A stretch of DNA of 32,000 bases from Acaryochloris thomasi RCC1774 (GCF_003231495.1 NZ_PQWO01000032.1:7300-39299), one strand, 5' to 3'. Positions 1,842-24,903 are shown, numbered from the stretch's first letter. Program-made: numbers and translations. The notes: generated by a model from the sequence alone, not told the origin.

Positions 1842-2151
1842 TTTCTTCGGCATAGCATCAAGGCGATTGTTGGGTCTCGTTGAGCAAATGGCTGATGAGT
1901 CCAGTGAATCTGCTGTGGCTATTCTAAGGTCGCCAGACTTGCGAGATCGCCTTGTTTCTTCTGACGATGGCGTGGTTTTGGAGACCCAGATTAGGCCGGA
2001 TGGCATTCATCGGACTGTACTTGGTTCCGATAAGAATTTTTTCGCGAATATTGCCTCCGGTCCTGGTCGCAACACCTTCGATGGGATCGTGGCTGGTGCA
2101 TTGAGGTTGGTAAGTGAGAGCGATGGAGAAGGAGTGCGACCATGCAGATAG
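1834..2151 (+). CDS. Hypothetical protein (105 aa)
   Basis: ORF track gives 1672..2151. ATG 1834 sits in an overlap with the upstream stop and follows AAGGGGA. Its 3' end overlaps the ATG at 2142. Confidence 0.5.
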   Translation: MSDFFGIASRRLLGLVEQMADESSESAVAILRSPDLRDRLVSSDDGVVLETQIRPDGIHRTVLGSDKNFFANIASGPGRNTFDGIVAGALRLVSESDGEGVRPCR

Positions 2152-3674
2152 TGGTACAGAAAATAGGTGACAGCAGCGTTTTGGTGACACCTGACGGCCA
2201 GCCAATCCCATACGTTGATTGTGACGATTGGACGCTTCATTTGATGCCCCAGATTTTGATAAACAGTCGGGTTTCCTCCGTCTCTCTGATTAGGGCGAAT
2301 CTGAAGTTGAGGAATGATGGCGCAGGTCCATTAGGGTTGCCGCATTTTACCTTTCATAACGTCCTGCCCATCGACGTTCAGATCACTCAGCCCTTCCCTA
2401 ACGAGAGCTTTTATGTCGCTGGGAGTGTTGATCGCAAGATGGGTTGGGAGTTTCCATTGCTAGAGAATCAGACCTGGGCCGAATTGTCTTTAACTTGGGA
2501 AGTTGATCAGAATCAGCCTTGGACGATCCATCACCGCATCAGATTCAATTTGGAGCATACACAGCAGGGTCATCTCTTCTCAATGGCGAGTGCCAACACT
2601 ATGTTTGGCATCAATTCTCAAAATGCGAAGGCGATCGCGCACTTCGATGAATCATCACTGGGTCATACATTCGCGAAAAGCGATGATTCGTTTCACTGCA
2701 GATTTGATAAAAGTCACTTCCGTATTGATTTTGAGCAGACACTTGACCTCCAAAGCCATGCCTGGAGTGACGTGCCCCACCTTGAGTTGCTTGAGAATCA
2801 AACCCAGCTCCACAATATCGAGCCAGCTACAACGTTTTCGACCTATCGCAAAGAGCATCTTTCTTGTGCTTGTTTAGAGATCCCCTCTGACGTTTTGCTT
2901 GAAGCCGTAGAAGATGCGCGACAAGAGACTCATTCATTGTCAGCGGGTCAGTACCACACTTCAAAAGCAGTGCGAAAGATTTGCGACTGGTGGAACCAGA
3001 ATGCCCCGGTCGAATCCTTTCGCCATGCGGGAGGCGTCGAGATTTGGTGTCGGGTCGAAGATGGTCCTGAATATTGGTCGGCTCAGGAGGAACGACCTGA
3101 AACAGATATCAAGTGCCTCTTAAAGCTAGACCCGAACACCTGTGCCCGTTTTGGCGATCACTTTTTGATTTACTTCCTAGAGAAGCCATCGGAGAATCGC
3201 ATCGACGATAACGATACTCGCTATATCAACTATGTCGATGGAACAAGTTGCACGAATATCTGGGATGAAGTCGAATATAGCTACTTCTCTTGGCAGAGCT
3301 TGTCTGTACTTCCTACGATGTTTCCGGTTGCTTATGAGCAAGTGTTGGCTAAGGGATACAGCCTTACTTCGCCAGAGCGTTTAATTTCTCAGTACCAGAG
3401 TGGAGAGCGTCGTTTTCCGATCCTCGCGCTAAGAGGCGCTAACTTTTCTGGGATGGATTTACGAGGCATCGATTTATGGGAGAGCGATCTGCGGGGTGCC
3501 AATTTTAGTGGTGCGAACCTTGAAGGTGCATGTCTGGTGGGTTGTGATTTGCGAGGGGTAGATTTCTCGTATGCCAATCTATCGCGCACTGATCTTCGTA
3601 ATGTGTGGATTAAAGCCACGAATCTCTATGGGGCCAATCTAGAGGGGGCAGATCCTTGGCCTCCAGGTGCTTAA
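2142..3674 (+). CDS. Large protein with an unknown ~420-aa N-terminal region and a C-terminal pentapeptide-repeat domain
   Basis: The C-terminus reads ANFSGMDLRGIDLWESDLRGANFSGANLEGACLVGCDLRGVDFSYANLSRTDLRN, a classic A(D/N)LXX tandem repeat. GAAGGAG lies 7 nt before the ATG. Confidence 0.85.
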   Translation: MQIVVQKIGDSSVLVTPDGQPIPYVDCDDWTLHLMPQILINSRVSSVSLIRANLKLRNDGAGPLGLPHFTFHNVLPIDVQITQPFPNESFYVAGSVDRKMGWEFPLLENQTWAELSLTWEVDQNQPWTIHHRIRFNLEHTQQGHLFSMASANTMFGINSQNAKAIAHFDESSLGHTFAKSDDSFHCRFDKSHFRIDFEQTLDLQSHAWSDVPHLELLENQTQLHNIEPATTFSTYRKEHLSCACLEIPSDVLLEAVEDARQETHSLSAGQYHTSKAVRKICDWWNQNAPVESFRHAGGVEIWCRVEDGPEYWSAQEERPETDIKCLLKLDPNTCARFGDHFLIYFLEKPSENRIDDNDTRYINYVDGTSCTNIWDEVEYSYFSWQSLSVLPTMFPVAYEQVLAKGYSLTSPERLISQYQSGERRFPILALRGANFSGMDLRGIDLWESDLRGANFSGANLEGACLVGCDLRGVDFSYANLSRTDLRNVWIKATNLYGANLEGADPWPPGA

Positions 3675-3727
3675 GAACCATGTATTGAGATATTTGTGTC
3701 AACAACAAGTTTGGAGAATGTGAACGT

Positions 3728-4345
3728 ATGCAATCAACTAATGCCAAAGCCTCTACGCCAGTTGACGAGATCCTTCTGCCAGCTCAGGCTGCGGCGTTCC
3801 TGGGTGTGACGGAGGAGCAGTTGCACAATGCTGTGTGCCAGGGTTATCTACCTGGGGCTTGCATTGATGGTCAGTGGCGGTTTAGCAAGCGCGGGCTGAG
3901 TAAGTTCTGCTGGCAAAGAAACAATCACAACGGTTCCGCGCCCTGGCTTGAGAACTCCTGTGGTCCCTACTGGTTGGGCGATTGGGCTGAACAAAAGGCA
4001 AAAGGTGTGATCGAGGCTTATGAGGCAGGGGAAAGATACTTCCCTGGACTCTCCATAAAAGGTGGACGTTTTGATGGTCAGGATCTTAGTGGTATTGATT
4101 TTTGGGAGTCCGGCTTGAAGGGTGCAAGCTTTTCTGGATGTATTCTCAAGCAGGCCATTTTTGTTGGTGCGGATCTTACCTCAGCCGTATTCAGGAATGC
4201 AGATCTATCCGATGCAAACCTTGAGGGAGCTGTGGTTGAGGATGCTGACTTCAGTGGAGCTATCCTGAATCGGACTAACTTTGCGGTCAGCTTGATGAGT
4301 GGAGCAAAGCTAGATGGAGTCAGTATCAGCATGGTCTCCTTCTGA
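3728..4345 (+). CDS. HTH (excisionase/MerR-like) fused to a pentapeptide-repeat domain
   Basis: The N-terminus LLPAQAAAFLGVTEEQLHNAVCQGYLPGACIDGQWRFSKRGL resembles excisionase-type HTH domains. The C-terminus has GQDLSGIDFWESGLKGASFSG...ADLSDANLEGAVVEDADFSGAIL repeats. Confidence 0.8.
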   Translation: MQSTNAKASTPVDEILLPAQAAAFLGVTEEQLHNAVCQGYLPGACIDGQWRFSKRGLSKFCWQRNNHNGSAPWLENSCGPYWLGDWAEQKAKGVIEAYEAGERYFPGLSIKGGRFDGQDLSGIDFWESGLKGASFSGCILKQAIFVGADLTSAVFRNADLSDANLEGAVVEDADFSGAILNRTNFAVSLMSGAKLDGVSISMVSF

Positions 4346-4417
4346 CGGTTCGACTCTTGTGAGCAACAGTATTCACCCCGGTTCATTTTCGTTCTTTGTG
4401 TCTGGAACTGAGTTTAT

Positions 4418-5089
4418 TTGTGTAATGTAGTTGGAGCATGGCAGCTAGTGGAGTTAATCGACAGAAGCATTGCTGTGTCAGGGTCGAGTGAGATAAACCT
4501 TGAAGATGCTATATCCCTAATTAGTCTGGACAAAGAGCATATCCTCTCTGATGTAGGTAGGGGGAGGATAAAGGCAACTCGTGTGAATGGTGAATGGATG
4601 TTCGATCGTCAGGATTTATGTGTCTATCAGTACTACTACTATCCAGATTGTGATCAGTTAGAGCCATCAACTCTCTCTTTCCCGACGCCTTTGACCCCGG
4701 AGTCTGTATGGCGTGAGTACCAGCGAGGAGCGAGAGATTTCTCTTGCAGAGCAGTGAGCAACAATGCTGATTTTTCGTGTAAGTCATTGCCAGAAATTGA
4801 CTTTAATTATTCAAAGCTTGCGGGTGTTAACTTTGAAGGCTCAGACCTGAGGCAAGCCAACTTTCGCGATGCCAATATGTTTAGGGTCAACATGAGAAAT
4901 ACAAAGCTGGCTGGGGCTAGCTTTGAGGGCGCTGAACTGCGAATCGTAGACTTCTCTGGTGCAGACCTAACCAATGTTAATTTCGGTGGTTCAAAAATCG
5001 GAAAGATTCAGCTCCAAGACGCAATCATTCGGAACACCCAGTTTTTCGAGGGAATTCTGTTGACAACAGTAAAGCCAGATTATCGGTAG
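4418..5089 (+). CDS. Second HTH plus pentapeptide-repeat protein, a paralogue of 3728..4345
   Basis: ISLISLDKEHILSDVGRGRIKATRVNGEWMFDRQDL parallels the HTH segment of the neighbouring protein. The C-terminus has VNFEGSDLRQANFRDANMFRVNMRNTKLAGASFEGAELRIVDFSGADLTNVNF repeats. The start is uncertain (TTG 4418 or GTG 4448). Confidence 0.75.
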   Translation: MCNVVGAWQLVELIDRSIAVSGSSEINLEDAISLISLDKEHILSDVGRGRIKATRVNGEWMFDRQDLCVYQYYYYPDCDQLEPSTLSFPTPLTPESVWREYQRGARDFSCRAVSNNADFSCKSLPEIDFNYSKLAGVNFEGSDLRQANFRDANMFRVNMRNTKLAGASFEGAELRIVDFSGADLTNVNFGGSKIGKIQLQDAIIRNTQFFEGILLTTVKPDYR

Positions 5090-5109
5090 ATCGGTAGAGA
5101 GGAAATTCG

Positions 5110-5493
5110 ATGATTCAAGTTCCATCAGTAGAGCGGCAGATACCTCGGTACTGGTCTTCCAGTAAGCCAAAGTACCCTCTCCATGTGAGAACGGTGACTA
5201 TAACAGGGCACAGTGGTTTCATAACGGGCGTGGAGCAGTGTTTCTCAAGTGAGGGGATTGTATGGCGATACCAAATAACTTCCATTGAAGGCAGCGAAGT
5301 CATTGTTTGGGATGACAATGGAGAGAAGGTGATAGATATTGCCCCAGATTCCAATCGTGATATCTACCAGCCCTCTTCAGAATTGGTAGCTCATCTCACG
5401 TCATTTGCCGATGAGCTTGAGCAACAAGAATTTAAGCGGGAACAGGAATCAGAACAAAAGGTTGATGAGGGTTTTGGTATTGATGATGACTGA
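5110..5493 (+). CDS. Hypothetical protein with an acidic C-terminus (127 aa)
   Basis: GAGAGGAAA precedes the ATG. It is the last gene of the plus-strand block. Confidence 0.6.
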   Translation: MIQVPSVERQIPRYWSSSKPKYPLHVRTVTITGHSGFITGVEQCFSSEGIVWRYQITSIEGSEVIVWDDNGEKVIDIAPDSNRDIYQPSSELVAHLTSFADELEQQEFKREQESEQKVDEGFGIDDD

Positions 5494-5497
5494 GAGG

Positions 5498-5806
5498 TTA
5501 ACCCCCCAACCCCCAGCACACCCCCAGCATCAGCCGACACCAGAGGTGCGCCAGCCGCTGCAGCAGGTTTGGGTACTTCCCCAGTCGTTGGGTACGGACG
5601 CGATCGCCCCAGCCGAGCCAGCGATGGATGAAGCGGTGGGAGCCGGGAGCCAGCGGGAGTAGGTCGATTCCGATCAGCTCGTGGCCGTATCTACGGTAGT
5701 TCGTATGGTGGACATGCGCGTACTTATAGGTGCGTTTCCAGGGGCACAGAGCGCAGCGGTAGTTCCAGCGCTTGAGCGTTCGTTTTCTCAGTTCAACTGC
5801 CGTCAT
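5498..5806 (-). CDS. Degenerate HNH-type nuclease-like protein
   Basis: It has the first CxxC and the His-His of an HNH motif (CALCP...HVHHTNYRRYGHE...DLLPLAPGSHRFIH). The second Cys pair is replaced by Ala and Ser. Confidence 0.5.
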   Translation of the reverse strand: MTAVELRKRTLKRWNYRCALCPWKRTYKYAHVHHTNYRRYGHELIGIDLLPLAPGSHRFIHRWLGWGDRVRTQRLGKYPNLLQRLAHLWCRLMLGVCWGLGG

Positions 5807-5842: not shown

Positions 5843-6211
5843 ATGAGGCGAAAGATACCGCTAATGGATAAGGCGATCGCAAGTCTGTCGCTGCTGGGCG
5901 TTGTTCTGATTTTGGTTGCGGCATATCGTAATTTCTTGATCAATGGGACGCTTGCCACAATCGGCTTCCCGAGTCTGATGATGGTGGGCGTATTTTTCAC
6001 CCTGCCAACAGTTGAGCTATATCGATACCGGCAGATAAAACCACTGGGTATGTCCTTTCGGGCTGTCATGGTTCTGATCGCAGATCGTTTGTTTTCCGGT
6101 GATCAGCAGTTCGCTTCGATCTACTGGGAGATAGCCGCCGTTGCGATCGCCCTGCTGTTTGTCTTTTATTTCCCTCGGTTGTGGGGAATGGTAGCTCGTA
6201 AAGTTTATTGA
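5843..6211 (+). CDS. Small integral membrane protein (122 aa, 3-4 hydrophobic helices)
   Basis: ORF track gives 5681..6211. ATG 5843 avoids overlapping the opposite-strand HNH ORF. Hydrophobic stretches include LLGVVLILVAAY, LMMVGVFFTL and IAAVAIALLFVFYF. Confidence 0.55.
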   Translation: MRRKIPLMDKAIASLSLLGVVLILVAAYRNFLINGTLATIGFPSLMMVGVFFTLPTVELYRYRQIKPLGMSFRAVMVLIADRLFSGDQQFASIYWEIAAVAIALLFVFYFPRLWGMVARKVY

Positions 6212-6459
6212 AATTCACTGATTAACCAGGACTTGTAGCGCTCAACTAAGGCCCGGATAAAGGCCCATTCTTCATCACTGGGATCTGAGAGAACGCCCAG
6301 GTTTTGCCAGCCCCTTTCATAGCAGCGCAACATATCAAAGGGTTCCAAGGACTTCAGCTTTTCCTTATCCGCTTGCCAGCTAATAGCTTCAAGGAAAGGG
6401 AGCTGTTCTGGAATATCGATTGCGTCCATTCGTTTGATCATTTCGTGCTTTTGCTCCAT
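6205..6459 (-). CDS. Hypothetical protein (84 aa) downstream of the relaxase
   Basis: ORF track gives 6205..6567. The internal ATG 6459 lies 20 nt after the relaxase stop and avoids an 89-nt overlap with it. Confidence 0.45.
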   Translation of the reverse strand: MEQKHEMIKRMDAIDIPEQLPFLEAISWQADKEKLKSLEPFDMLRCYERGWQNLGVLSDPSDEEWAFIRALVERYKSWLISEFQ

Positions 6460-6478
6460 CTTGGCAAATTTCCTCGCA

Positions 6479-9400
6479 TCAATACTCAAACCCTTCCTCT
6501 TGCTCCATTTCATACTCATGAGCCGCAAGCTCCTTCTCCAGCCAGGGACTTTCCTGCGCCCATTCATCCAGTGTCGAATAGCTCAAGTCGCTCAACTGAT
6601 TACCCCGCGCCAGCCAGTCGTCGATCCCCAGCTTGCCCTGGTCATTCCCTGGCATCTCGGCCACCTCCACCTTGGCTCCCTGTTGCTCTAGCAGCCGACC
6701 GAACCGATGCATTGCGATGGCAACATTCCGTAGTGTCTTGGTCTTCTCCGGTGGATCTTTGTCGAAGCACAGCACCACCGTCCGGCTCTGCCAGTTGTAT
6801 TGCTTGAGATGTCCATCGAGATACCGCTGCTCATTGTCATCTTTGCTGTAGCCCCCATTGACGCCATTGAGAGCAATCGCATCAATACCCCTGGTATAGA
6901 TTGCAGCGCCCTTCTTGGCCCCTTCAGTAATCCAGACTTCCTTGGTTTCGTTCTTGATGTCATCGAGATCCTTGGCAAAGGCAAAGTGACTGCGGTGTGA
7001 GGGCAGGTTTTGTGACGCCTTTGGAATAGACTCGTACTTGCGTTCTTTCAGCTCTGGCTTGTAGTTTGCAGGCTTTTCCAGGTTCTGCACCTGACCATTT
7101 TTCAGGTAGATGGTGAAGCGATCCTTGTCCTTCTCCTCAGTGACGGGTGTATTAGGCTTGAGTTGCCCCCACGGTTCGCCATTGAACGGCCTGCCTTCAC
7201 ACCAGAGTCCGCCCGCTTCAAGATGCTCGTATCGAGCTAAGAACTTTTCTACCTGAGCTGTGGTGTATTGGGTGCCGTGGCCTGCGAATTGCCCCATCGC
7301 GTAGTTGAGTAAATGTTCCTTGGCCCCTGGCCCATCGAGAGACCAGAAATACTTCGCAGCCACTTGGGGATGGATTGATGAATCTTTGACCAGCTCCACC
7401 CACCGCTCTTTCTCGATGTAAGTGGGTCTCAGGTATTCCAGCGCTTGCAATCTCTGTGTTGTCCACACTCGTCCTGTCTTTTCTGTTGACTGCTGTGGAG
7501 CTTCGTTAGCTACTTGAGCTTCAGCCTCCAGCCTGTCCTTCTTCAGTACCGGCTTTTCAACTTGTGGCTGAGTCGGTGGCTGGGTGGGTTGCCTATCCTT
7601 CTTCAGTACTGGCTTCTCCACCACAGGTTTTGCCTTCTTCTGAGGTTTGGGTGTGACATCAATGCCCATATTCCGCATCTGCTCCGTTAATCTCTGCAGC
7701 TCCTCTCTCGACACCTCAGGATTGGACCTGAGTGTCTGAACGAGCAGAGCCAATCGCTGTACATCGGCCTGCTGCTCAATCCAGTTTTCAACGTGATCGC
7801 CTAGGCCCACAAAGACCTGCATGTGTTCGGCTATGGCATCCTGTTGCTGGGTCTCGTGAATCGCCTTAGCTAGCTCCTGCACCCCTTCAAGAGAAGGCTG
7901 CTGCCTCGTCATCTGCTCTAGGCTATGGCCCACATGGTTGAGCTTATCGGTGAGGCCCGACTCTAGCAGTGTCCCCACGTCGGCCTGCTGTTGAATTAGC
8001 TCAGCCAACTCAGCCATCTGTGGGTACTGCATCCACTGTTCCAACCTGCCGCTGACTTCAGTGATGACCTCAGCCACCTGCTCCATTGCTTGCTGTTTGG
8101 TGATGACCTCTGCCAACTGTTCGATGCCATGTTGTCCTCTGAGACGATCCATCACGCCCGAGAACTCAGCGGCCACCTCAGCAATGAGCTGTTGCTCCTG
8201 CCAGCCGTGTAATGCCTCCGCTAACTCCTGCACCTGTGGCCTGACGGTTGACGGTCCCGTGAACTCCCGAAGTAGCTCCATCACCTGAGCTTGATCGCCT
8301 GCAGCCATCGCCTCCACCATGCGCTGTTCGTTGGTCCACTGCCCCACAGCGTTAGTGATGTGATCTGCCACCCCTTTTGTGAGGCTCTGGTCAATCTGTA
8401 GCTGCAGAGCATCAAGCGTCTCTGAGATGAGGGGCAACGACTCAGCAAAGGTTTGTTCGATGTCACCTGAATGAATCACTTCAGCTAGTTCTTCTATACC
8501 CTCGAAAGTGATTCCTGATGGTCTTTGGTTCTCAACGACGCTAGCTAGCTCCTGCAGCTTTTCACCTAAGCCAGATTCAGCGATTACCTGCAGGTCCGCA
8601 TTCGTCTGAATCGCATCGGCGAGTTCAACGAGATTGTGATTCTGGCTTAGGTGCTGCAAGCGTTCTCCAAGTGCGGCACCCACCTCCAGCATGACCGCTT
8701 CAGCTTGGTTGTGTGAGATCGCATCTGCGAGTGAATCAATGGAGCTTGAGAGATCAGGTTGATGAACCTTCTCTTGAGCCAGCTCCAGTGATTTGTCGAT
8801 GGTCAGTCCTAACTTTTCTAGCGCCTGATTGATGCCCGGTAGCGTTTCCGCCAATACTTCCTGAGCATTAAAAGTATTGATGTCGTTGGCTAGTTCGTTG
8901 ATGGAGCGTTTGAGGGCTGCATCTGATTGGTCTCTAGAGACGTTGGCAGGCTCGCCGTATCCGGTAGATCGATCGTCAGTGATGAGCGACCCGTTAGCCC
9001 GTGCCGCTTCAACTCTCCCACTAAGTCTTGCAACTGCTCCATCCAGTCTTGATTGGTGCCCAGCATCGAGACGTTGTTGAGCTGCGCGTCGTTGATTTGG
9101 GTCATCAAAGCGTCGAGCCTTCCGTAAAGCTGCTTGATGCTCTGGGCTAGGTCGTCGTTCTTCTTGCCCTTCAGCGCTTCGCTCAGTGCTTCGGTGAACT
9201 CCATCAGATGCCCGTTGAGAACCACTGGCATTGTATTCATCGACTGATTGACCAATTGATGCACCTTCTTGTGTCTGGCTTCGTTGTTCTCGTTGAGCTG
9301 TTGATTGTGCTGGATCAAGAGCCGATTCTGTTGCTCGACTGACATCAACCGTCCGTTGGCTGTCTCCAACTGCCTGCTTATGGTTTGGTTCTGCTTCTCG

Positions 9401-10462
9401 ACTGCCGTCAGCCTCTCGCTCATGACTTGGTTCTGCTGCTTGATCTCGTTCACGAGTGTTAGTAGTTCTTCCATGATTGATGTCCTCTGGTTTTGTGGGT
9501 TGAACGGTTGAAGCCTTTTCTGCCGTAGTCCTTTCTATGCCCTGCTGTTCTTCACGCACAGGGATAGAGACCACGTTTTCTTGAACGATATGCAGCCTGG
9601 GATTTTGCAGGTCCACCCCCTGCGCTCTGTCGTGCCACTGCTGCTTTAATTTCTGGGGTTCTTCGAGTTCCTTGACGGGGCGGTTTTGCAGGCTAATGTG
9701 CTTTAGCTCTCGCCAGCCTGTAACGCCCTTGGCTTGGGCAATCGCTTCTATTTCCACGGTGCGCTGGGAGAAGGCCCGTAGCTGTTCTTTTGTATACCCA
9801 GTGATATCGAAGGTATCGTTTGGCTTCCAGACAATCCCGTAGCCAATCTGTTGTAGGTTGGCGGCGAGTTCATGTTGATACCGAACGCCTAAGTCACGTC
9901 GGCTATCTCGAAAGAAGCTTTCGTTCCGCAGTGCTCTCCATTTGCCATCACTGCAGTAGCTGGTGTTCATGATGATGGCGTGGGTATGGAGCTGCGGATC
10001 CATCTTGCGACTGGTGGCATGGGTGAAGGTGGCAATCGCTAACTTGCCGGTGATCTCCTTCTGGCGTTTACCTCCGGTGCGGATCTCAACGAGGGAGTGA
10101 TTCAGTTCAATTTCCTTGAGGACCGCATCAACGGCTTCTCGATGAGCCTTAATCACTCGCGTGTCATTCCAGACCAGTGCTTGCAGGCTAACTGACTTGG
10201 GCGCAGAGAACGTGAGGTCGTAACCTCCCCTGGTTTTATTCCCGGCATTGCTGACGCCGCGTAGTCTGACGCCGTTGGGCGCTCTGCCGTGGATGAACCT
10301 TCGGAAGTCTTCTGCCTCCACTGCACCCTCAAGGCAAACCTGCGCGGCAAGGTTTCCATACCAGCGTGACCCACAGGCATTTTCTTCCTGCGCGTAGTAG
10401 GAATCTTCTTGTTCGTAGTAGGAGGCTGCTGCCTCTGGTCTGACGTTGTGGGCGGTGAGCAT
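6479..10462 (-). CDS. MOBF (TrwC-type) relaxase fused to a helical repeat array and a Toprim-like C-terminal domain
   Basis: The N-terminus parallels R388 TrwC as I recall it: MLTAHNV, paired Tyr AASYYEQEDSYY, LTFSAPKSVS and the His triad FTHATSRKMDPQLHTHAIIMN (nt 9980-10021). The C-terminus EVWITEGAKKGAAIYTRGIDAIALNGVNGGY...VVLCFDKD...GIDDW resembles Toprim (DUF3854-type, from memory). No Walker A motif is recognisable. Confidence 0.9.
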   Translation of the reverse strand: MLTAHNVRPEAAASYYEQEDSYYAQEENACGSRWYGNLAAQVCLEGAVEAEDFRRFIHGRAPNGVRLRGVSNAGNKTRGGYDLTFSAPKSVSLQALVWNDTRVIKAHREAVDAVLKEIELNHSLVEIRTGGKRQKEITGKLAIATFTHATSRKMDPQLHTHAIIMNTSYCSDGKWRALRNESFFRDSRRDLGVRYQHELAANLQQIGYGIVWKPNDTFDITGYTKEQLRAFSQRTVEIEAIAQAKGVTGWRELKHISLQNRPVKELEEPQKLKQQWHDRAQGVDLQNPRLHIVQENVVSIPVREEQQGIERTTAEKASTVQPTKPEDINHGRTTNTRERDQAAEPSHEREADGSREAEPNHKQAVGDSQRTVDVSRATESALDPAQSTAQREQRSQTQEGASIGQSVDEYNASGSQRASDGVHRSTERSAEGQEERRPSPEHQAALRKARRFDDPNQRRAAQQRLDAGHQSRLDGAVARLSGRVEAARANGSLITDDRSTGYGEPANVSRDQSDAALKRSINELANDINTFNAQEVLAETLPGINQALEKLGLTIDKSLELAQEKVHQPDLSSSIDSLADAISHNQAEAVMLEVGAALGERLQHLSQNHNLVELADAIQTNADLQVIAESGLGEKLQELASVVENQRPSGITFEGIEELAEVIHSGDIEQTFAESLPLISETLDALQLQIDQSLTKGVADHITNAVGQWTNEQRMVEAMAAGDQAQVMELLREFTGPSTVRPQVQELAEALHGWQEQQLIAEVAAEFSGVMDRLRGQHGIEQLAEVITKQQAMEQVAEVITEVSGRLEQWMQYPQMAELAELIQQQADVGTLLESGLTDKLNHVGHSLEQMTRQQPSLEGVQELAKAIHETQQQDAIAEHMQVFVGLGDHVENWIEQQADVQRLALLVQTLRSNPEVSREELQRLTEQMRNMGIDVTPKPQKKAKPVVEKPVLKKDRQPTQPPTQPQVEKPVLKKDRLEAEAQVANEAPQQSTEKTGRVWTTQRLQALEYLRPTYIEKERWVELVKDSSIHPQVAAKYFWSLDGPGAKEHLLNYAMGQFAGHGTQYTTAQVEKFLARYEHLEAGGLWCEGRPFNGEPWGQLKPNTPVTEEKDKDRFTIYLKNGQVQNLEKPANYKPELKERKYESIPKASQNLPSHRSHFAFAKDLDDIKNETKEVWITEGAKKGAAIYTRGIDAIALNGVNGGYSKDDNEQRYLDGHLKQYNWQSRTVVLCFDKDPPEKTKTLRNVAIAMHRFGRLLEQQGAKVEVAEMPGNDQGKLGIDDWLARGNQLSDLSYSTLDEWAQESPWLEKELAAHEYEMEQEEGFEY
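8890..9474 (-). CDS. Embedded +1-frame ORF (194 aa, coiled-coil-like) inside the relaxase linker
   Basis: ATG 9474 follows GAGGA (9487-9483) with 8-nt spacing. The product MEELLTLVNEIKQQNQVMSERLTAVEKQNQ... looks protein-like. Third codon positions are G/C-rich in this frame and A/T-skewed in the relaxase frame. Confidence 0.4.
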   Translation of the reverse strand: MEELLTLVNEIKQQNQVMSERLTAVEKQNQTISRQLETANGRLMSVEQQNRLLIQHNQQLNENNEARHKKVHQLVNQSMNTMPVVLNGHLMEFTEALSEALKGKKNDDLAQSIKQLYGRLDALMTQINDAQLNNVSMLGTNQDWMEQLQDLVGELKRHGLTGRSSLTIDLPDTASLPTSLETNQMQPSNAPSTN

Positions 10463-11475: not shown

Positions 11476-11742
11476 ATGACAGAGTTAAGACCTCACACAA
11501 CCCTCTTATTGTTAGAGCTTATATGGGAAGGAACCTACATACGACCATCCGCTCAACGTGATTGGGTAGAGCAGAACTTTGAACGTCTTCAACTGCTGCT
11601 TGAGAAGCAGGCTTACACCAAGGTCTGTGAACAATTTGCTGATGAGATTCAAATCAGTCCCGCAACGCTGTCCAAGCATTACAAAGCAACGAAGAAAAAT
11701 AAACGCTGGCAGCGAGGAAAACCTCGTCGCCAGGATAGATAG
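11476..11742 (+). CDS. Small basic protein with an HTH-like segment (88 aa), paralogue of 11814..12233
   Basis: It shares WVE(Q/K)xF..LQ...EKQ.....EI..SP.TL.KHY.A.KK with the next gene. AGGAG RBS present. Confidence 0.65.
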   Translation: MTELRPHTTLLLLELIWEGTYIRPSAQRDWVEQNFERLQLLLEKQAYTKVCEQFADEIQISPATLSKHYKATKKNKRWQRGKPRRQDR

Positions 11743-11813: not shown

Positions 11814-12233
11814 GTGACTGATTTCAAGAAAATACAAGACCTCCTAGAAGAACTGCATGACGAAGGGGATCATATCCCTGAGCGTTCATCGATTCATCAT
11901 CAGTGGGTAGAGAAGCACTTCGCTCTCCTTCAAGACATGATTGAGAAGCAGAGACACCCGCTCAAAAAAATAACGGAAAAATTAAAGGCAGAGATCACTC
12001 TAAGCCCTCAAACACTGCAGAAACATTACCAAGCCGTTAAGAAGCTCAAGCTTGCGGAAGCCAGACGTGCAAAGAAAAATCAGACTACTGAAGCTGCCAC
12101 CTCTGCTGCCGTTTGCGATCGCAGAGGTGGCAGCACTAAACAATCTCGGGCAAGGGTAAAACCTCCAGAGGTGGACTTGTCGAAGATCAGTCCACCGCCT
12201 CAATTAGTACATGCAGAAATTGTAGAGGATTAA
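11814..12233 (+). CDS. Paralogous HTH-like protein with a basic C-terminal extension (139 aa)
   Basis: GTG start follows GGAG with 7-nt spacing. It shows paralogy to 11476..11742. Confidence 0.65.
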   Translation: MTDFKKIQDLLEELHDEGDHIPERSSIHHQWVEKHFALLQDMIEKQRHPLKKITEKLKAEITLSPQTLQKHYQAVKKLKLAEARRAKKNQTTEAATSAAVCDRRGGSTKQSRARVKPPEVDLSKISPPPQLVHAEIVED

Positions 12234-13633: not shown

Positions 13634-14494
13634 CTAGGCCGCTACAGCAACCGGCTGCAGTGCTGCAGCTTCCACTGCTGCGATGATTTCCTTCGCCGCC
13701 TTCTGAATGCGAGAGCCGGATTCCTTGAGCTGTGCGATCGCATCGTCGGTTCCGCTCATCCAGTCGCTAACGTAGGCAAAACTATAGTCACCGGAATCGA
13801 GGTCCAGGGCATTGAGGACCACGAAGGCGACTGATTCAGCCTCTAGCTCTAGAACAGACCGCTCGTTATGCATCCGGTAGTCTTGGGCAGAATGCATCAA
13901 CGCATGACCTAGCTCGTGGGCCATTGTTTTCGCTTGGTGCAACGGCGATAGCAGGGGGTTAATGGTGATTTCAATGCCTCCTGGTGCAAAGTAGCACTGA
14001 CCGTTAGGACCAGTAGAGTTAAACTGAGTCTTGAAGACCTTGCTATGAGCAAAGTCTCGGAGGGCGTTAAACAGTCCCTGATCGTCTCCTTGTATTGGGT
14101 TGCAGATATCGGGTAACTCTTCCCCATCTGTTTGGGAGATATCGAAGACCGTTGCCGTCTTAAATCCTGAGATGATCCGCTTTGAGTCGCCGCTCTCTTG
14201 GTCTTCAATCTTTCGGGTTACTGGAGCAAATATGGTGATGCCCTTCTCTCCCTTGCGGACCTGTCGGCCCATCTTCTGCCAGACGCGATAGCCTGCCACT
14301 CTAGACGCTTCAGGCATTTGCTCACGGATCATGACGATATTTCGGAACGAGTACTGATTAAAGCGGCTCTGGAAGGATAGATACTCCTGCCAGTCGCCGG
14401 ACGTTGCTAGGGCTGCAATACCGGCTTCGAGCTTGGCGAGGGCTTCGGTCTGCTTTTGCTCGGCGGCCGCTTTGTTGGCTTTGAATTTTGTCAT
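13634..14494 (-). CDS. ardC: ArdC-like antirestriction protein (ssDNA-binding N-domain plus HExxH metalloprotease domain)
   Basis: YSFRNIVMI...GYRVWQKMGRQVRKGEKGITIF is the typical ArdC/DUF1738 N-domain signature. MAHELGHALMH is a zincin HExxH motif. A GGAG RBS lies inside the conserved intercistronic module. Confidence 0.8.
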   Translation of the reverse strand: MTKFKANKAAAEQKQTEALAKLEAGIAALATSGDWQEYLSFQSRFNQYSFRNIVMIREQMPEASRVAGYRVWQKMGRQVRKGEKGITIFAPVTRKIEDQESGDSKRIISGFKTATVFDISQTDGEELPDICNPIQGDDQGLFNALRDFAHSKVFKTQFNSTGPNGQCYFAPGGIEITINPLLSPLHQAKTMAHELGHALMHSAQDYRMHNERSVLELEAESVAFVVLNALDLDSGDYSFAYVSDWMSGTDDAIAQLKESGSRIQKAAKEIIAAVEAAALQPVAVAA

Positions 14495-23332: not shown

Positions 23333-23497
23333 TCAAGCTTCAGGTTTTCCCCTCTCCTGTGCCCTCTCCTGCGCTGCCACAGCCCTCGCCTCAGCATTCC
23401 TCTGGTTCCACTGCTGTCGGGTTTCGTCGGGGTTGGTGGACTTGGGTGGTGCAAATGTTCGGTGGCTGTAGTTGCCTCTGCCTTCTTTAGCTTTCAT
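23333..23497 (-). CDS. Possible small basic protein (54 aa) coupled to the kinase stop
   Basis: ATG 23497 overlaps the kinase stop codon region (ATGAAAGCTAA). No family recognised. Confidence 0.3.
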   Translation of the reverse strand: MKAKEGRGNYSHRTFAPPKSTNPDETRQQWNQRNAEARAVAAQERAQERGKPEA

Positions 23498-24599
23498 GGT
23501 GTTCATTCGTAGGTTGTCTTGATGTGAAGGCTCTAACGGCACTGATTAAAAACAGTCCAATGAAGAGCCATTGAGAGGTATTCATTGCGGTTGAAGTGAT
23601 CTTTGAGAACCCAGGAATATCAAAGACATCTGATGTATTCAAAACTATTGGGCGCATGATGATTACTGTCCCTACACCGCAAGCCGCTGCTGCAGGGGTA
23701 GCAAATCTTGCGAGAGTGGTTTGCTCATCTTGTCTTGCGAGGGCGCTGATTTCCTCGTCCCGCGCTAATTGACTCTCCTCTTTCTTTGTGATGTCTGCAG
23801 GATCAGCCTCCTTAAGCGCTTGGAGTGCAGCATCTGCCGACTGAAAACGTCGTCCTAGAACATCATCGATCATCTTATCGAGGACATCTGCGAACTCTTC
23901 GCGGACTGGTTTCCCGGCCAGCTCAAGCCGCCACTGCAGAGCGCCGGTCATTGGGTCTGCTGCAATGCTCATTGGGCTGGTGCCAGTAAGCAGATGAATG
24001 CAAGTCATTCCCAGGCTATAGATATCACTAGCAAAGGTTGTTTTACCTCGCATCTGCTCAGTTGAGGCATAGCCCACTGAACCGATCATGGTGCCGGTTT
24101 TAGCTAGCACCGTCTCTGAAACTCGCTTTGCAGCTCCGAAGTCCACCAATACCAGCGCACCGTCGCTCTGTCGTCGAATGATGTTGGCGGGCTTGATATC
24201 GCGGTGAATGACCCCGCTGCCGTGCAAGTAGCGCAGTAGCGGCAAGATGCCCTTTAGTAGGCTGTCGATCTCCTCTTCAGTAAAAGTTTGACCTTTCTGG
24301 AGGCTTTGCTGCAGGCTTTCTCCAGCGATGTACTCTTGAACGATAAATAACCTGCTACCTTCCTCGAAGAAGTCGTAAAACTCGGGAATCTGGGGATGTG
24401 TGCCCACTTCTTTGAGTCGTTCGGCTTCTTGACGGAATAGCTGGGTGGCCTGCTCTGAAGCATTTTCCTGAGACGGCGCGAATTCTTTGATAACACAGCG
24501 CTTTCGGTTGCTGGACTCGGCCAGATACGTTTTTCCGAACCCGCCTTTGCCTAGCTCTCTGATGATTCGATAGTTGTTGAGCAAAATTGTTGAGTTCAT
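23487..24599 (-). CDS. Hanks-type Ser/Thr protein kinase with a C-terminal hydrophobic anchor (370 aa)
   Basis: LGKGGFGKTYLA (Gly loop), VIKEF (catalytic Lys), HRDIKPANII, DFGAAK and GSVGYASTEQ. ORF track gives 23487..24719. ATG 24599 lies 8 nt after the upstream stop. The C-terminus has the hydrophobic segments VGTVIIM and WLFIGLFLISAV. Confidence 0.85.
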   Translation of the reverse strand: MNSTILLNNYRIIRELGKGGFGKTYLAESSNRKRCVIKEFAPSQENASEQATQLFRQEAERLKEVGTHPQIPEFYDFFEEGSRLFIVQEYIAGESLQQSLQKGQTFTEEEIDSLLKGILPLLRYLHGSGVIHRDIKPANIIRRQSDGALVLVDFGAAKRVSETVLAKTGTMIGSVGYASTEQMRGKTTFASDIYSLGMTCIHLLTGTSPMSIAADPMTGALQWRLELAGKPVREEFADVLDKMIDDVLGRRFQSADAALQALKEADPADITKKEESQLARDEEISALARQDEQTTLARFATPAAAACGVGTVIIMRPIVLNTSDVFDIPGFSKITSTAMNTSQWLFIGLFLISAVRAFTSRQPTNEHHES

Positions 24600-24606
24600 G
24601 CTTTTT

Positions 24607-24903
24607 TTACTCGCTCTTTTGGGCTTGATGCTTCTTGACTTTTCCGGCCAGTGTCTTGAGTTGAGAGCGCAGCTCCTCAATACTTTGACACAGCCTTCGC
24701 TCCTCTCCTCGAAGCGCACTGAGAACAGTTGTCCGCGACATTTCCTTTACGGCTTTCCAGAGTAGTTCGTTGGCCTGCTGTGGCTTTGCTTGGGCGGCAT
24801 TTGTAAGCAAGCCAGAGATTAGGAGGCTTTGAGTTTCTGGCAGCAGCTCTAGATTGATATCAGCTTGCGTATGAGTAGCGGGGCTGTGCTTAATAGCCTG
24901 CAT
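24607..24903 (-). CDS. Hypothetical protein (98 aa) with a coiled-coil C-terminus
   Basis: ORF track gives 24607..24984. ATG 24903 gives a 14-nt overlap with the upstream gene. Confidence 0.45.
   Translation of the reverse strand: MQAIKHSPATHTQADINLELLPETQSLLISGLLTNAAQAKPQQANELLWKAVKEMSRTTVLSALRGEERRLCQSIEELRSQLKTLAGKVKKHQAQKSE

Follow-up and report, generated by a model that had tools for sequence, protein, structure and literature searches.

A second open reading frame within a MobF relaxase gene

The present work concerns a small open reading frame (ORF), here called B, that lies entirely within a relaxase gene of Acaryochloris thomasi RCC1774. The sequence analysed is a single stretch of 32,000 nucleotides (nt) (GCF_003231495.1, NZ_PQWO01000032.1:7300-39299), referred to below as the window, and positions are counted from its first letter. 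On its minus strand, the window carries a gene of 1327 codons whose product is identical in sequence to the NCBI protein named 'Multifunctional conjugation protein TraI' from the same strain. A TrwC-type relaxase domain forms the N-terminus of this protein and places it within the MOBF class; it is recognized by Pfam (TrwC, PF08751, residues 11-281, E 4e-72) as well as by NCBIfam (MobF, E 1e-76, 258 bits for a cut-off of 100). MOBF relaxases typically possess a helicase domain, either central or C-terminal, and the A. marina and Nostocales relatives of the host do carry one. In contrast, the Pfam scan detected no helicase or AAA_30 family in the 1327-residue host protein. Judged on its domains, the host is best described as an atypical MobF relaxase, without helicase and with a DUF3854 domain.

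ORF B begins 988 nt into the relaxase ORF, that is, in its +1 frame. In the following, frame A denotes the frame of the relaxase and frame B the +1 frame. B is wholly contained in the relaxase ORF, on the same strand and in a different frame, which is the layout of an overprinted accessory gene. The initiation codon of B (ATG at 9474-9472, minus strand) is preceded by a GAGGA resembling a Shine-Dalgarno (SD) sequence; read in frame A, this motif (9487-9483) corresponds to Glu-Asp codons. The features of the locus are collected in Table 1.

Table 1. Features of the relaxase gene and of the nested ORF in the window (aa, amino acids)
Feature	Position	Strand	Basis or remark
Host gene, frame A: MobF/TrwC domain, linker, acidic repeats, DUF3854	6479..10462	-	ORF listing (encloses the whole of ORF B); Pfam and NCBIfam
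TrwC/MobF relaxase catalytic domain, aa 1-283, frame A	9614..10462	-	Pfam and NCBIfam
Shine-Dalgarno-like GAGGA, 8 nt before the frame-B ATG	9483..9487	-	Read in the sequence
Nested ORF B, 194 codons plus TAG, ATG start, +1 frame	8890..9474	-	ORF listing, comparative data
Frame-A translation of the ORF B span, relaxase aa 330-524, linker	8891..9475	-	R/A/S/E/Q/D/G-rich
Frame-B stop TAG, within the frame-A 'E-L-A' motif at the start of the first acidic repeat	8890..8892	-	
Acidic repeats, about aa 525-960 (bounds approximate), frame A	7583..8890	-	Motif [EQ]LA[EDK]xI...AE, degenerate units
DUF3854 domain, aa 1173-1286, relaxase C-terminus	6605..6946	-	Pfam PF12965, E 1e-23

Composition of the two frames

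Third codon positions in frame B are 72% G+C, with T at just 8% of them. Within the same span, those of frame A are 42% A and 28% T (70% A+T). On a codon-usage score, frame B reaches 0.379 bits per codon and the relaxase outside the span 0.360; inside the span, frame A scores 0.227 and the third frame -0.02. Sixteen codons of frame B end in T and 61 begin with AA, AG or GA, and none of the former directly precedes any of the latter. An initial annotation, made from the window sequence alone, had already described a 194-codon +1 ORF inside the relaxase gene with its own Shine-Dalgarno sequence and an ATG at 9474, 8 nt after GAGGA, and both the ORF listing and the sequence itself agree with this description. 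It had also noted mostly G/C third positions in frame B and an R/S/A/E/Q-rich frame A with A/T-skewed third positions, as measured here, and its count of 16 T-ending codons, none of them before a codon starting with AA, AG or GA, is exact. The frame-specific codon scoring that it had proposed gives a frame B matching the relaxase outside the span.

Given the B protein and the codon usage of the window, about 12 stop codons are expected in frame A, and frame A was open in 0 of 20,000 simulations. When the codons of B were permuted synonymously, the probability that frame A stays open in the window was 6e-4. Across four loci (the relatives are presented below), the corresponding values are P < 1e-4 with the window codon usage and 6e-4 to 0.027 with synonymous permutation. 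Frame A, being open despite the stops expected, is thus under active maintenance as an open frame. Whether frame B is real must be decided by comparison with relatives.

Relatives carrying the nested ORF

A tblastn search of B against 72,556 plasmids gave matches only within annotated mobF genes of Acaryochloris plasmids, and in every match that was fetched and checked the B-like sequence is the +1 frame of mobF. The closest full-length relative of the relaxase (P0002, 51% identity) is encoded on a 12-kb JGI metagenome contig (L009), where the +1 ORF has exactly 194 codons, with start and stop as in the window and no gaps. The nested ORF is also present in A. marina-type loci (L001, L002, L010 on pREB3, L011 on pREB1, and L013, all fetched), in the pREB6-type locus L012, whose pREC2 twin (H72) is a tblastn match that was not fetched, and in short Logan contigs (L017-L022), five of which (L018-L022) are near-identical. 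A scan of genome contigs with the B alignment returned two A. marina plasmids only, and two scans of metagenome contigs with B returned nothing.

All related loci in which the relaxase frame is intact (the window, L009, L001, L002, L010-L013 and L018-L022) have a +1 ORF of 150-194 codons at the same place, between the relaxase(/helicase) part and the acidic repeats. Wherever the upstream sequence was read, an SD-like GAGGA, GAGGG, AAGGA or AAGGAG stands 5-8 nt ahead of a conserved ATG, and with this motif and this codon B appears to have translation-initiation signals of its own. Eight loci were analysed in full for start and stop, for stops in the six frames and for the alignment of the B proteins. 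In 8/8, the TAG stop of B falls at the equivalent frame-A 'xLA' motif, which opens the next conserved module of the relaxase. Frames A and B are the only ones that are stop-free in all eight, the other four frames having 2-19 stops each. The open stretch of frame B ahead of the ATG measures 20-32 codons in the window and L009 and only 3-7 codons in the A. marina-type loci. Antisense coding was also considered as the source of the three-base periodicity described in the next section, and was rejected because stops occur in all three antisense frames in all loci.

B varies by insertions and deletions at its Q/N-rich N-terminus and in its C-terminal tail, with both frames remaining open. For instance, the B of L010 (L010:5833-6336), compared with that of L011 (L011:5875-6336), carries a 14-residue insertion of the QQNVNNQQQIINN type, and in the L018 lineage (L018:595-1047) an earlier frame-B stop gives a B of 150 residues. 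The relaxases of L002 (Acaryochloris 'Moss Beach' pMB03) and L013 (A. marina S15 plasmid) are 94% identical upstream of B and 61% downstream, and their flanking synonymous divergence (dS) is 0.32 upstream and 1.12 downstream of the nested gene. Judging from these sequences, both relaxase genes have a mosaic structure, the recombination junction falling at B or close to it.

Selection on the two frames

The window and L009 can be compared over 585 ungapped nucleotides. Protein identity is 76% in frame B, 55% in frame A and 55% in the third frame, which is stop-ridden and non-coding, and the differences are distributed 33/22/72 over B codon positions 1/2/3. The ratio of non-synonymous to synonymous divergence (dN/dS, or omega) according to Nei-Gojobori is 0.14 for frame B, 1.96 for frame A and 1.18 for the third frame, but omega values in an overlap are semi-quantitative, which lessens their weight in favor of B, and a comparison with flanking dS was used in place of the frame-A omega. 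Indeed, standard dN/dS is biased in overlapping regions (PMC4316641). The frame-A omega of 1.96 is an artefact of the overlap and does not indicate positive selection.

In a sliding window over the same pair, substitutions peak at frame-A position 3 along the whole gene except at relaxase residues ~330-520, where the peak shifts to frame-A position 1, that is, to frame-B position 3 (example counts are [14,2,2] in the span vs. [12,8,30] elsewhere). The frame-A codon phase resumes in the acidic repeats (omega 0.14). The proportion of non-synonymous differences (pN) between the window and L009 is 0.127 in B, 0.34 in the relaxase domain, 0.27 in the repeats and 0.32 in the C-terminus, the proportion of synonymous differences (pS) being saturated in the relaxase domain; no other protein-coding stretch of the locus is as conserved as B.

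The same pattern recurs elsewhere in the family. Over B codon positions 1/2/3, two A. marina pairs differ by 14/5/34 and 4/1/15 and the pREB6-type pair L012/L017 by 42/21/71, B being 64% identical and A 36% in the latter. In the pair L010/L011, dN in B is 0.015 vs. a flanking dS of 0.31. The nested frame is therefore under strong purifying selection, and this is seen in three clades. The initial annotation had proposed a search for synonymous-site constraint in orthologues; frame B turns out to be conserved in the three clades, and frame A no more so than the third frame. Where pairs are not saturated, positions at which a change is silent in B and alters the residue in A evolve at roughly 55-100% of the synonymous rate in the flanks, dS being 0.17 in the span vs. 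0.31 in the flank for L010/L011 and 0.46 vs. 0.66 for L002/L010. Hence, beyond staying open, frame A is under weak amino-acid constraint at most.

These data bear on the idea that frame B is not translated at all, its openness and conservation coming instead from an RNA structure, a DNA site or a low-complexity compositional bias. Such an origin would fit with an ORF length that is marginal once the codon composition of frame A is fixed (P = 0.12 in the shuffle within the span). However, the substitutions are three-periodic and phased on frame B, they switch exactly at the ORF boundaries, and they do so in three clades. Moreover, the homology of the B proteins is recognizable across clades (21-28% identity) in spite of the divergence of the DNA and of frame A, B begins and ends at conserved codons, and the antisense frames are closed. 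We consider an untranslated frame B to be very improbable.

The predicted B protein

AlphaFold2, run in single-sequence mode, predicts for B a helix spanning residues 2-78 (predicted local distance difference test, pLDDT, about 85-94), followed by three shorter helices up to residue 157 and by a disordered tail (residues 161-194); the mean pLDDT of the model is 65. The frame-A span is predicted as coil over its first ~120 residues (pLDDT < 50), then as one helical stretch. In the alignment of the eight B proteins, the N-terminal helix, rich in Q/N, is variable, and conservation is found in a core with T81-x-P83, L90, F93, A100, S112-I113, L116, L123 and E146. Across clades, B proteins share 21-28% identity (tblastn E 3e-5 in the whole plasmid database, BLASTP 2e-13); within each clade, B diverges roughly in step with its host relaxase. 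Hydrophobic residues make up 34% of B, and the tryptic peptides to be expected from the window protein include LDALMTQINDAQLNNVSMLGTNQDWMEQLQDLVGELK.

B is annotated as a product in 0 of the records examined. Comparison with Pfam, for which all eight B proteins were scanned, and with NCBIfam and PDB sequences gave only sub-threshold coiled-coil matches (CENP-H, ZapB, vimentin), and a Foldseek search of the PDB with the AlphaFold2 model of B returned nothing at E < 0.4. Likewise, nothing was found with B in a word-indexed search of 5.8e9 proteins nor in a full phmmer scan of 1.84e9 representatives. A B profile run against the 5.8 billion proteins recovered no free-standing homologue; its only three matches are accidental calls of this nested ORF, from loci that are fragmentary or degraded. 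Finally, in the literature searched, no nested gene is described for the mobF genes of cyanobacteria; in a study of Acaryochloris plasmids, mobF serves for plasmid classification only (PMC9324425).

Probable translation of the two frames

From the comparison of the sequences, B is very probably a real gene. As an overall reading, we consider it likely that the linker of the MobF relaxase harbors a conserved, overprinted and never-annotated gene, probably accessory to the relaxosome or to type IV transfer. An overprinted gene whose host frame is retained as a tether was one of two readings put forward in the initial annotation, and selection on frame B, the conserved SD motif, ATG and stop, and the stop-free frame A all support it. 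At the sequence level, the DNA at 8890-9474 (minus strand) encodes two proteins on one strand, B under strong purifying selection and A as a linker joining the N-terminal relaxase domain to the C-terminal part made up of the acidic repeats and DUF3854. Selection on frame A mainly consists in the avoidance of stops, visible as few T-ending codons in B and no codon junction of T with AA, AG or GA. The relaxase would be made as one polypeptide in which residues 330-524 act as a tolerant tether, and B would be translated by internal initiation from its own SD sequence and ATG on the relaxase mRNA. A scan for sigma-70-like promoters inside the relaxase gene found none, a result that is uninformative for cyanobacteria. 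As no internal promoter-like site was seen, B is presumably translated from the relaxase mRNA, and its expression would therefore be tied to that of the relaxase.

The second reading of the initial annotation was that the relaxase itself passes through frame B by means of two switches (+1 near 9480 and back near 8900), either programmed or due to sequencing errors. It would explain why frame B is the conserved frame in the span and why frame A resembles low-complexity filler. However, the layout recurs in independent records, namely seven Acaryochloris plasmids of PLSDB, the JGI contig and Logan contigs, which excludes sequencing errors. With two switches, frame A would have no need to be open, yet it is open with P < 1e-4 per locus. 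In addition, the SD motif and the ATG are conserved, as is the terminal TAG, frame B is closed by a stop 3-7 codons upstream of the ATG in several loci, and the short open stretch upstream is unconserved. The features of a programmed frameshift are not found either: frame A is open downstream, B has its own SD motif and ATG, and no shared slippery motif was seen by eye, no formal motif search having been run. No B-like sequence in frame with a relaxase was found in the word-indexed search of 5.8 billion proteins or in the full scan of 1.84 billion. We therefore reject this reading, whose probability we regard as close to nil.

One may also imagine that B is made, partly or only, as a fusion, by a +1 frameshift yielding a chimera of truncated relaxase and B, terminated by the stop of B. 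The two frames share a strand, and in the window and L009 the ATG is preceded by 20-32 open codons of frame B; nothing direct points to a chimera. The upstream open stretch is, however, conserved neither in sequence nor in length, since it is reduced to 3-7 codons in the A. marina-type loci, the conserved SD motif and ATG speak for independent initiation, and no shared shift site was seen by eye. A fusion is accordingly unlikely, with a small probability only.

Several observations weigh against the reading of B as a conserved nested gene with a role in transfer. Within the single sequence of the window, the length of ORF B is no more than marginally unusual: an open +1 stretch of at least 214 codons has P = 0.011 when codons are shuffled across the whole relaxase gene, and the absence of +1 stops within the span has P = 0.12 when codons are shuffled within it. 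The length and openness of the ORF in this one sequence, on which the initial annotation dwelt, are not statistically compelling, and it is the relatives that carry the case. Some loci are broken. In L017 (Logan SRR11470442), a 1-nt insertion or deletion near B codon 140 disrupts both frames. In L016 (Acaryochloris sp. CCMEE 5410 draft, AFEJ02000004.1, 136-4675), mobF is split into ~12 small called ORFs, both frames are broken, and even its B-like product (P0123) is chimeric between frames. These two loci are either pseudogenes or assembly errors. The family is also narrow, being made up of eight Acaryochloris plasmids in PLSDB, this contig, one metagenome contig, Logan fragments and one draft genome, and the +1 ORF is absent from the related Nostocales MobF-DUF3854 relaxases and from at least one other Acaryochloris mobF, that of pREB5. 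Finally, the function proposed for B is argued from gene topology, as B has no detectable similarity to MobB, MbeB or MbeD, nor, apart from coiled-coil noise, to any Pfam, NCBIfam or PDB entry.

Comparison with known nested genes and possible role of B

To our knowledge, mobB of RSF1010/R1162 and mbeB/mbeD of ColE1 are the only known cases of a relaxase-nested layout. The mobB gene of RSF1010/R1162 is contained in mobA/repB and read in a different frame (PMC2200642). In an RSF1010-like IncQ1 plasmid recovered via its oriV sequence (L015, NC_016859.1), mobB (4306-4719, minus strand) occupies the +1 frame of mobA (3338-5506, minus strand), fills the linker between relaxase and primase, and ends 4 nt into the RepB' start (4309). 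Parker and Meyer (2007), cited in PMC3297438, state in their title that MobB is required for the transport signals of the R1162 relaxase. Like B, mobB is a small gene that shares the strand of the relaxase gene enclosing it, is read in the +1 frame, occupies the linker after the N-terminal relaxase domain and ends where the next module starts. However, the relaxase is of the MOBQ class in RSF1010/R1162 and of the MOBF class here, the C-terminal module is the RepB' primase instead of acidic repeats and DUF3854, MobB has 137 residues vs. 153-194 for B, and no in-frame start of its own was identified for the C-terminal part of the MOBF host. Homology of B with IncQ-type MobB was not found: hhalign of the B profile with the MobB of L015 gave a probability of 1.3%, and the NCBIfam 'IncQ-type MobB' family was not matched.

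In ColE1-type plasmids, mobB and mobD are located entirely within mobA (PMC5935869). In ColE1 itself (L014), mbeB (2868-3386) and mbeD (3393-3626) both lie in the +1 frame of mbeA (2132-3733). Here again, accessory genes, two in this case, are wholly inside the relaxase ORF in the +1 frame. The ColE1 systems differ in being small mobilizable enterobacterial plasmids with a MOB-HEN/MOBP relaxase devoid of a second enzymatic domain. No homology of B with MbeB or MbeD was found (hhalign probability 0.5% and 0.6%, no match to Pfam MbeB_N or MbeD). All the relaxase-nested accessory genes checked (mobB, mbeB, mbeD), and B, use the +1 frame. At the sequence level, B is best viewed as a new variant of the relaxase-nested layout and not as a member of the MobB, MbeB or MbeD families.

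Closer to the host, cyanobacterial MobF-helicase-DUF3854 relaxases (pCC7120gamma, pNPUN03, Tolypothrix and Nostoc plasmids) share TrwC/MobF and DUF3854 with it, at 30-35% identity. In contrast to the host, they have a helicase domain and no +1 ORF at the equivalent position. In Nostoc UHCC 0302, mobF and the gene for the DUF3854 protein are separate. A parallel can also be drawn with the overprinted genes of viruses, for which the general picture is that of one constrained frame and another of low complexity or disordered, a young nested gene being taxonomically narrow (PMC8227390; bioRxiv 10.1101/229690). The locus described here resembles them by its one strongly constrained frame, its one disordered frame and the narrow taxonomic range of B, but it belongs to a bacterial plasmid, and the frame under weak constraint is here that of the host gene.

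By analogy with the nested mobilization genes, B might be an accessory protein of the relaxosome or of type IV transfer, working with the host relaxase; we hold this assignment only tentatively, with somewhat less than even confidence. B could also be a real gene having another function, such as a regulator of transfer genes, an exclusion or fertility factor, or a plasmid-maintenance or anti-defence protein making use of the relaxase transcript, although we judge this rather unlikely. B lacks homology to known mobilization accessory proteins, its model predicts a generic helical, coiled-coil protein, and the nested gene mbeD of ColE1 is described as coding for a putative entry-exclusion protein and no component of the relaxosome (PMC5935869), all of which would agree with such a function. 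Yet B occurs inside relaxase genes only, never standalone, and its divergence within clades follows roughly that of the host relaxase. As for an exclusion protein, no membrane segment is apparent in B, as judged from its hydrophilic sequence without a transmembrane predictor.

A layout common to several relaxase classes

Annotation pipelines disallow long same-strand nested genes. B adds a well-supported case to the short list of such genes in bacteria (153-194 codons), and points to an unrecognized protein produced from the relaxase gene of large Acaryochloris plasmids. The division of labor between the two frames, with B informational and A an open tether, also makes the locus a natural test case for methods that detect dual coding.

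The accessory-gene-in-linker layout is extended from MOBQ and MOB-HEN to MOBF, with unrelated proteins encoded in the +1 frame of the relaxase linker in each of these three classes (MobB in MOBQ, MbeB and MbeD in MOB-HEN, B in MOBF). Its presence in several relaxase classes suggests a selective logic, such as coupled expression or an inseparable linkage of the relaxase with its partner. More speculatively, and with rather low confidence, inter-domain linkers of relaxases could be recurrent birthplaces or capture sites for accessory proteins. The Acaryochloris linker would in that case have no function as a sequence and be an out-of-frame read-through of B, kept open only to join DUF3854 to the relaxase, and B would have arisen de novo or would be an older gene lying across the fusion.

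Other features of the relaxase gene and its neighborhood

In the acidic repeats, a regular-expression scan gave five matches, some of them ~36-45 residues apart, and additional copies were recognized by eye only; a self-BLAST found no repeats. No DNA tandem repeats of note were detected in the relaxase gene, and a search of PDB sequences with the C-terminal third of the relaxase, including DUF3854, returned no relative. At the DNA level, the relaxase gene had no megablast match among plasmids. At the 3' end of the relaxase gene, an ORF of 120 residues (6205-6567, minus strand) overlaps it by 89 nt in another frame and is not conserved at the equivalent position in L009.

Nearby genes, among them an ArdC-like gene and genes for an AAA ATPase and pentapeptide-repeat proteins, give the neighborhood a plasmid-like character. 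Genes for an ArdC-N/M78 peptidase-like anti-restriction protein (13634-14494, minus strand), for three consecutive pentapeptide-repeat proteins (2142-5089, plus strand) and for a Ser/Thr protein kinase (23487-24719, minus strand) are found in the window, and such a context fits a plasmid or another mobile element. Upstream of the relaxase gene and divergent from it, two small tandem ORFs (11476-11742 and 11814-12233, plus strand) are paralogues of each other (47% identity over 70 residues, E 2e-15); they could encode relaxosome or regulatory proteins.

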